Positions 20,601 to 20,891 of a stretch of DNA of 32,000 bases are shown one piece after another. Within the stretch, counting starts at the first letter, position 1. The number at the start of each line of letters is the position of its first letter. The stretch is from Desulfotalea psychrophila LSv54 (GTDB taxonomy: Bacteria > Desulfobacterota > Desulfobulbia > Desulfobulbales > Desulfocapsaceae). The notes beneath the pieces were generated by a model. That model was not told the DNA's origin, made no database searches, and saw only the letters and a list, made by a program, of their open reading frames with translations. The position numbers and the translations under genes were made by a program. Where the stretch lies: positions 1-32,000 of the forward strand of contig NC_006138.1 of NCBI RefSeq assembly GCF_000025945.1. The letters run 5' to 3'.

Positions 20601-20891
20601 AGATGCGAGATACGAGATACGAGATACGAGATACGAGATACGAGATACGAGATACGAGATACGAGATACGAGATACGAGATACGAGATACGAGATACGAG
20701 ATACGAGATACGAGATACGAGATACGAGATACGAGATACGAGATACGAGATACGAGATACGAGATACGAGATACGAGATACGAGATACGAGATACGAGAT
20801 ACGAGATACGAGATACGAGATACGAGATACGAGATACGAGATACGAGATACGAGATACGAGATACGAGATACGAGATACGAGATACGAGAT
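20601..20891. repeat. Heptanucleotide tandem array (AGATACG)x40 perfect, plus one degenerate leading copy
   Basis: 20608-20887 is 280 nt of uninterrupted agatacg. 20601-20607 is agatgcg. The array starts 24 bp upstream of the wzy-like ATG (20576) and ~160 bp downstream of the galU stop. Confidence 0.97.

Follow-up and report, generated by a model that had tools for sequence, protein, structure and literature searches.

A forty-copy heptanucleotide array in the predicted leader of a Wzy-family gene of Desulfotalea psychrophila

A perfect array of the heptanucleotide AGATACG, 40 exact units long, separates galU from a gene for a Wzy_C/O-antigen-ligase-family membrane protein (wzy below) in the 32,000 nucleotides of Desulfotalea psychrophila LSv54 that we analysed (NC_006138.1, positions 1 to 32,000, the whole of which is called the window here). 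In the sense of wzy the unit reads CGTATCT. We consider the array to be a real simple sequence repeat (SSR) of a known class, embedded in a predicted leader, with a function that is plausible and unproven. Our favoured explanation, held tentatively and at a little under an even chance, is that of a slippage-prone SSR in the wzy leader, with an architecture like that of the hmw genes of Haemophilus influenzae, in which the number of repeats would set the length of the leader and, through it, how strongly wzy and the acetyltransferase gene behind it are expressed.

The array, its predicted promoter and the leader RNA

A regular-expression scan of the window returns positions 20608-20887 as (AGATACG)x40, exact and unbroken, and perfect period-7 identity spans 286 nt or 40.9 copies (20606-20891). 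Tandem Repeats Finder calls a slightly longer element (20601-20891, period 7, 41.6 copies, 99% matches, score 575), and the two methods together confirm the initial annotation, which had claimed an uninterrupted 40-copy tract at 20608-20887 with one degenerate copy at 20601. On the plus strand this copy reads AGATGCG (20601-20607), and it is followed on the side of the gene by a more degenerate one, AGATGCA (20594-20600). Between the ATG of wzy and the first degenerate copy there are 24 nt, and between the ATG and the perfect tract 29. With 40 exact units and 286 nt of perfect period 7 the element has the long pure tract expected of a slippage switch, and with a unit of 5-11 bp, in non-coding DNA and iterated far above chance, it belongs among the long simple sequence repeats of the class LSSR 5-11.

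The location of the array between the galU stop codon (21049) and the start codon of wzy (20576), also claimed earlier, holds on the evidence of matches to TIGR01099 and PF04932 and of the start codon itself. The ATG at 20576 is backed by an N-terminal TEKK that is conserved in two homologs of 64-65% identity, and by an in-frame TAA TGA just upstream that closes the wzy frame. A protein identical to the wzy product carries the database title 'O-antigen ligase family protein'. A sequence search of the PDB gave no match that would help to choose between a polymerase (Wzy) and a ligase (WaaL), and PF04932 alone fits either.

Two ways in which the array could belong to a protein were considered and rejected. 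The open reading frames (ORFs) that cross it (101-137 aa, on both strands) exist only since the unit lacks a stop in all six frames; they begin and end in the flanks, with TTG or unsupported starts. An intragenic frameshift switch does not fit either, as 29 nt lie between the end of the array and the ATG, the upstream TAA TGA closes the wzy frame and the N-termini of homologs begin at the same place.

Abutting the array on its upstream side is a sigma-70-like site reading TTGACA-16-TGgCACAAT, which matches the consensus at 10/12 positions. It is the sole such match on either strand of 19300-22400, where shuffles of the region average 4.1, and in the whole window three sites score 10/12. The predicted -10 box ends in two bases (AT) that keep the register of the first repeat, and the array starts at these bases and extends downstream. 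Transcription is predicted to start at about 20884, inside the first repeat, and the transcript to carry the array in a leader of about 305 nt, some 280 nt of it array. No intrinsic-terminator-like site was found between the galU stop and the array, and no promoter-like site in the 29 nt between the array and the ATG. Because these 29 nt leave no room for a promoter and nothing resembling a terminator follows galU, the array would be transcribed whether the predicted promoter is real or not. Position, predicted promoter and the short gap to the ATG place the array in the predicted 5′ leader of the Wzy_C-family gene, one of the two sites (promoter or leader) that had been proposed. A further proposal, that each slippage step would change promoter spacing and helical phase, is not supported: the predicted -10 box is followed by the array, which lies neither between -35 and -10 nor between an activator site and the promoter, and a change in unit number would therefore alter the length of the leader only. 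In a transcript that reads through from galU, any register of the array can base-pair with the 12-nt anti-repeat found farther upstream (20996-20985).

The predicted leader RNA folds more weakly than all of its shuffled controls (minimum free energy -26 versus -41 ± 3 kcal/mol, z = +4.9), and its centroid structure is essentially unpaired, with a single 2-bp helix. Its composition is U 43%, C 29%, A 14% and G 14%. Every unit of (CGUAUCU)n has a C/G ratio of 2 and two YC dinucleotides; along the tract C/G is 1.75-2.1, with about 22 YC dinucleotides per 78 nt, and in the flanks it is about 0.4-0.5. Rho loads on long, untranslated, unstructured RNA with C>G, and the predicted properties of the leader suggest that it is Rho-loading-like. 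Covariance models from Rfam gave no match in the array region; three sub-threshold chance matches elsewhere in the window are to plant miRNA models. A structured RNA or riboswitch was rejected on the absence of an Rfam match and on a fold less stable than all shuffles.

Origin of the array and occurrence of its unit elsewhere

The predicted promoter is part of a module of about 70 nt that has a paralogous copy upstream of gmd (Table 1). Between the two copies (minus strand, 20957-20886 and 26321-26250) 54 of 68 positions are identical, with a local alignment score of 43 against at most 19 for shuffled queries. Where the wzy copy continues with (CGTATCT)40 CGCATCT TGCATCT GTTTTT, the gmd copy has CGCATCT CACATCT CTTTTCTG, with its heptads at 26246-26259. 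Because the gmd paralog holds only two degenerate heptads at this place, the array is a local expansion of a heptad native to the module, which bears out the earlier description of the locus as a local hyper-expansion of a recurring word.

Further copies of the heptad had been reported in the window, and we find them as the short sibling array at 14040-14063, as 12-nt inverted runs at 20985-20996 and 24474-24485, and as degenerate pairs at about 44 and at 26246-26259. A pattern of two heptads with at most three mismatches matches 53 times in the window, compared to 1.43 ± 1.06 times in shuffles, and the seven matches that lie outside both arrays are all intergenic (7/7). Isolated single heptads occur at about chance frequency. 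Sense-oriented sites lie upstream of five genes: a his-type gene (4347), the gene starting at 8888 (8367, 8561 and 8747), ugd (14040), wzy (20606) and gmd (26246).

We found no array in the loci of Wzy homologs, which are at most 65% identical and lie in other contexts. The two homologs of 64-65% identity are encoded 44 nt behind a glycosyltransferase gene in one case and behind a 432-nt repeat-free spacer in the other. The closest chromosomal relative of GalU on a long contig (84% identity) is surrounded by compact spacers without the array, and a metagenome scan for the junction of promoter and array gave 0 matches. The unit itself is widespread: stretches of (AGATACG)x3 or longer number at least 120 in GTDB species-representative genomes and come from many phyla; among the matches listed there, the median is 4 copies and the longest array has 15.9. 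On JGI metagenome contigs, arrays of 12 copies or more were found in 21 stretches, with a maximum of 19.9 copies. The D. psychrophila array, with 40.9 copies, is the longest of about 150 arrays of the AGATACG unit among the matches listed, a ranking affected by short-read assembly, which limits array length in the genomes compared.

Arrays between co-directional genes are found 37 times in the AGATACG sense versus 11 times in the CGTATCT sense (binomial p = 2e-4, again among the matches listed), and the co-directional arrays on metagenome contigs are AGATACG-sense in 5/5 cases. The arrays in the D. psychrophila window sit in the rarer, C>G orientation (CGTATCT-sense). The 37:11 bias would fit a cost that C>G arrays incur when transcribed. 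Two pairs of orthologous Vibrio loci with conserved flanks differ in copy number, one with 7 versus 4 copies (L052 6211-6260 and L060 2922-2950) and the other with 10.3 versus 11.3 (L061 7867-7938 and L117 3512-3590). These differences are of whole units, and therefore the AGATACG unit slips in nature.

In the loci fetched for comparison there are 172 period-7 arrays (41 of which have other units) versus 31 arrays for all other periods from 4 to 12. A heptamer 'vocabulary' shared across phyla was considered and rejected, the other heptamer classes occurring almost all once in 860 kb of fetched loci. Several genomes carry multiple AGATACG loci, for instance metagenome-assembled genomes (MAGs) of Chthonomonadaceae, Latescibacterota, Ardenticatenaceae and Smithella (among loci L003-L122 and L124-L144). 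The arrays often stand beside arrays of other heptamers or beside an inverted copy of their own, where a hairpin is possible (e.g. L019, L042, L077, L081 and L101). Upstream of ugd, (TAGCTGG)n at 14141-14180 adjoins (CGTATCT)3.4 at 14040-14063, and the same pair of units is found on a Thermoanaerobaculia MAG contig (L071 1-125), where (TAGCTGG)n lies directly beside (AGATACG)16. Seen from the sequences, this pairing may be a coincidence or may reflect a shared origin.

Table 1. Positions of the array, of related elements and of neighbouring genes in the window
Feature	Position	Strand	Remarks
Perfect heptanucleotide array	20606..20891	minus	(CGTATCT)x40.9 on coding strand, AGATACG on plus; core of 40 units 20608-20887
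Two degenerate terminal heptads, gene-proximal array end	20594..20607	minus	CGCATCT TGCATCT, then GTTTTTAATGAGAATTT, then ATG
Sigma-70-like promoter (predicted)	20890..20917	minus	TTGACA 20917-20912, 16-nt spacer, extended -10 TG 20898-20897, CACAAT 20895-20890
Module of ~70 nt with promoter-like site	20886..20957	minus	GGATATTAGAAAAAGCTGAAAA...GAGATTAGCGCTTGACAcGAtAGTTGC...TGGCAC; duplicated upstream of gmd
Paralogous module copy	26250..26321	minus	divergent intergenic region, ~280 nt upstream of gmd, sense orientation; poor -10 box
Short sibling array	14040..14063	minus	(CGTATCT)x3.4, 24 nt upstream of ugd start codon
12-nt anti-repeat	20985..20996	minus	AGATACGAGATA, 93 nt 5′ of array; complementary to any 12-nt register of array
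galU, UTP-glucose-1-phosphate uridylyltransferase, upstream gene	21915..21049	minus	TIGR01099, 371.6 bits (cutoff 326.8)
Wzy_C/O-antigen-ligase-family membrane protein gene, 408 aa	20576..19350	minus	PF04932, 71.2 bits
gmd	25970..24849	minus	
fcl	23234..22263	minus	
Hexapeptide acetyltransferase gene	19203..18556	minus	
Terminator-like hairpin and T-run after acetyltransferase gene (predicted)	18433..18454	minus	

Known repeat systems and competing explanations

The best studied relative in kind is the (ATCTTTC)n repeat of H. influenzae hmw1A, which lies between promoters P2 and P1, of which P2 is the functional one. Part of the first repeat falls within the -10 box of P2, and the P2 transcripts have the SSR in their 5′ untranslated region (UTR); more repeats give less transcript and less protein, by a mechanism that is unresolved (PMC8262952). 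Copy numbers at the hmw loci range from 9 to 28, and expression is lost at about 20 or more (PMC2424069). The analogy with hmw drawn in the initial annotation is therefore apt as far as anatomy goes: a -10 box overlapping the first repeat and an SSR in the 5′ UTR, reported for hmw1A (PMC8262952), make up the layout predicted here. Like the wzy array, the repeats of hmw1A and hmw2A are built from a 7-bp unit that is pyrimidine-rich on the sense strand, run to tens of copies and precede a gene for a surface structure, and in both systems slippage alters the length of the leader only, the wzy layout being a prediction. The two differ in the sequence of the unit, in copy number, 40 being beyond the range where hmw is already silent, and in host, which here is a free-living psychrophilic sulfate reducer and not a host-adapted pathogen. 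Promoter, variability and effect on expression are experimental for hmw and predicted for the wzy array.

On this model, a heptad of one or two copies, native to the duplicated promoter module, would have expanded into the array, and RNA synthesis would start within the first repeat, so that the whole array is transcribed. Units would be gained and lost by replication slippage, changing the length of the leader alone. A longer tract should lower expression because the leader RNA is untranslated, unstructured and pyrimidine-rich, with C/G = 2; premature termination through Rho loading, decay of the RNA, or both, would increase with the length of the tract, and expression of wzy and the co-transcribed acetyltransferase would fall. 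The outcome would be a heritable, reversible and graded setting of a step in surface-polysaccharide synthesis, as in hmw1A/hmw2A, and by the same analogy 40 copies would be a low-expression state. In favour of this explanation, the cluster holds further slippage-prone tracts, A9 in wzy and G9 in the GT10 gene.

Other systems resemble the array in part. In Moraxella catarrhalis, according to PMC4679880, uspA2 has (AGAT)n in its 5′ UTR, with 6-23 copies between strains, which tunes expression. There too a repeat lies between promoter (here predicted) and start codon in front of a gene for a surface protein, and AGAT is contained in AGATACG; uspA2 differs in its tetranucleotide unit, in an expression optimum at intermediate copy number and in its pathogen host. 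The TAACTGA heptamer arrays of marine Beggiatoaceae, cyanobacteria and Bacteroidetes mostly lie a few nt upstream of start codons and reach 43 copies (MacGregor 2015, PMC4679880); there is no functional theme among the genes downstream, their function is unknown, and RNA-binding proteins (Csp, S1, CsrA) have been proposed to act on them (PMC4679880). They share with the AGATACG arrays that they are intergenic heptamers, that the unit is common to distant phyla and that very long arrays occasionally occur. Unlike the wzy array, they have another unit and usually 2-6 copies that overlap the ribosome-binding site in sense orientation, and the wzy array, with its CGTATCT/AGATACG unit, 40 copies, a distance of 29 nt from the ATG and a predicted promoter abutting it, resembles them in kind only.

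Cyanobacterial short tandemly repeated repetitive (STRR) heptamers belong among the long simple sequence repeats. The wzy array has in common with class LSSR 5-11 that it is a heptanucleotide repeat in non-coding DNA of a non-pathogen with a length far beyond chance. The class is defined statistically, with no function implied, and the promoter-abutting position in a leader is specific to the wzy array. Heptanucleotides are the most abundant LSSR 5-11, are found mostly in non-pathogens and perhaps reflect a mere tendency to expand (Mrazek 2007, as cited in PMC4679880). Geobacter metallireducens has multicopy intergenic elements of 3-5 tandem units of 7-9 bp that have been proposed as sites of global regulators (PMC2700814). 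The nonamer TCTCCGTSY x3 of this related lineage resembles the CTCTGTGNN x3 of the window; the Geobacter elements differ from the wzy array in that their copy number is low and fixed, without hyper-expansion, and function is conjectured for both.

Several points weigh against a slippage-driven leader switch. The locus is known from one D. psychrophila sequence, and hence with one copy number. Long AGATACG arrays elsewhere adjoin housekeeping genes (RNase J, enolase, FeoB); among their neighbours, which also include a polysaccharide deacetylase gene, we found no functional or surface-structure theme. Because all of the window belongs to a polysaccharide cluster, whose spacers are very long and rich in repeats, adjacency to a surface gene is no enrichment. 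The promoter is a consensus match whose start site is not mapped, and the gmd paralog has a poor -10 box; the part assigned to Rho is inferred from composition alone. Some bacteria, moreover, have many long heptamer arrays, which may be due simply to a tendency to expand (Mrazek 2007, as cited in PMC4679880). This last point leads to the explanation that we find quite possible, if clearly short of even, namely that an ordinary LSSR 5-11 passed the length threshold for slippage and ran away neutrally, being tolerated without a selected role and with any effect on wzy incidental. It would account for the dominance of heptamers among the SSRs of the fetched loci, for the many tandem words of 7-9 bp in 2-6 copies in a window that is 24% intergenic, and for the presence of AGATACG arrays in many phyla beside unrelated housekeeping genes, and it accords with the general tendency to expand just cited. 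It does not account for the CGTATCT-sense orientation, which is the one avoided elsewhere, nor for an anatomy that coincides with that of the sole experimentally proven heptamer switch (PMC8262952).

Quite unlikely, in our view, is that pairs of CRYATCT heptads are a word for a DNA- or RNA-binding protein (an operator placed directly behind the promoter, or a site for a cold-shock/S1-type single-strand RNA binder) and the 40-copy tract an amplified operator or sponge, though the two-heptad matches at seven further intergenic places versus 1.4 expected, the sense-oriented sites upstream of five different genes (both arrays included) and the matching position of the heptads in the two copies of the promoter module would agree with it. 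So would the proposals of global regulator sites in tandem heptamers of G. metallireducens (PMC2700814) and of Csp, S1 and CsrA as candidates for the TAACTGA repeats (PMC4679880). However, no binder has been identified, 40 copies are far above any known operator, the word is degenerate outside both arrays, and AGATACG arrays occur in unrelated phyla without a shared neighbour gene. A promoter-geometry switch, in which each 7-bp step would alter the -35/-10 spacing or the helical phasing of an upstream site, is a known mechanism for other SSRs, and 7 bp correspond to a helical rotation of about 240 degrees, but it is highly improbable for an array that lies downstream of the predicted -10 box, leaves 29 nt without a promoter-like site before the ATG and, at 286 bp, by far exceeds the length that a spacer mechanism could allow. 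A sigma-54 version, with a promoter split by the array (TGGCAC at its upstream edge, TTGCAT at its downstream edge), is not supported, since a repeat-free allele would have a spacing of 4 nt where 5 are needed and the gmd copy lacks the TTGC. We give hardly any weight to an artefact of cloning or assembly in the original shotgun project, either of the copy number or of the array as such: perfect tandem arrays are easily misassembled and are not stable when cloned in E. coli, and there is a single assembly, but one Sanger read is longer than 286 nt, the unique flanks run on without a break into real genes, and the degenerate end copies and the sibling array of 3.4 copies point to a genuine element.

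A stronger form of the leader-switch explanation, which we consider unlikely, would make the array a tunable Rho-loading leader, in which the number of CGUAUCU units would set how often transcription is aborted before wzy, and slippage would give this free-living, cold-adapted bacterium a reversible rheostat of O-antigen polymerisation or ligation, e.g. against phage. If this were true, the 37:11 orientation bias would reflect the same Rho cost, and a mechanism would be suggested for the still unexplained effect in hmw.

The surrounding cluster and what the array may mean

On the minus strand the genes follow in the order gmd, a GxxExxY/PDDEXK_3 gene, fcl, galU, the array, the Wzy_C gene, a hexapeptide acetyltransferase gene, an ORF, an AT3-SGNH acyltransferase gene, a GT10 fucosyltransferase gene and ugd, and the cluster is one for a fucose-containing surface polysaccharide. 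The predicted hairpin after the acetyltransferase gene (18454-18433) is probably the end of the wzy-acetyltransferase transcription unit. The intergenic share of the window is 24%, with single gaps of up to 1.1 kb. Codons 4-6 of the Wzy_C gene (GAA AAA AAA) form the A9 tract (20558-20566); a tract of A8-A9 is kept at the same place in the two homologs of 64-65% identity (L001 8023-8031; L002 8028-8036), despite synonymous codons, and this tract may be a translation-initiation feature or another slippage site.

The GT10 (alpha-1,3-fucosyltransferase-like) gene (14205-15324, minus) is split by a +1 frameshift at 14554-14558, where it reads AAGAAAGGAG versus AAGAAAGAG in homologs. It also contains the G9 tract (14432-14440, encoding YWGGA), where homologs have G4 (YWGD). 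The G9 tract was rejected as the cause of the split, the frameshift being a single extra G at 14554-14558. The split gene is either a pseudogene, a sequencing error or a second slippage-prone site of the cluster. The protein that matches the chromosomal GalU best in the database is 92% identical to it, and we take it to be encoded on the large plasmid of D. psychrophila, where a paralogous sugar-nucleotide gene would then reside.

Usually, gmd and fcl form a tight gene pair. Here they are interrupted by the GxxExxY/PD-(D/E)XK_3 gene (23902-24450), whose flanking spacers of 667 and 398 nt are full of mosaic repeats. Long spacers throughout the window (4400-4850, 7750-8887, 12305-12671, 21916-22262, 23235-23901, 24451-24848 and 25971-26961) are mosaics of one recurring module, roughly GCTTTTTA(AATAATT/CCAAAAAA)nCCTCTGTG..(CTCTGTG)..CAGTGGTTAAC, which has at least 16 copies in the 32 kb, in both orientations, and often holds three tandem 9-mers CTCTGTGNN. 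At 8242-8855, 3.3 copies of a 186-bp unit (89% identity) follow one another in a 1138-nt divergent spacer upstream of an unannotated ORF of 453 aa (8888-10249); the mosaic module and a degenerate heptad pair CATATCTAGCATCT are present in every one of these units.

Host-adapted pathogens are well known to switch surface structures by means of repeats; in free-living environmental anaerobes such switching is, to our knowledge, hardly documented. The points that set the array apart are its length, its purity, its free-living host and a clean layout of promoter (predicted), repeat and gene. Should it prove to be neutral, it would be an extreme case of a known behaviour of heptamer repeats, their tendency to expand. 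If instead it varies and tunes the Wzy-family gene, its clean anatomy, with a predicted -10 box on the first repeat, 280 nt of unstructured C>G RNA and then the start codon, would make it a test bed for leader heptamers that lower expression. The biology of contingency loci would in that case extend to a psychrophilic sediment bacterium, in which the likely selective agent would be phage or grazing and not immunity.

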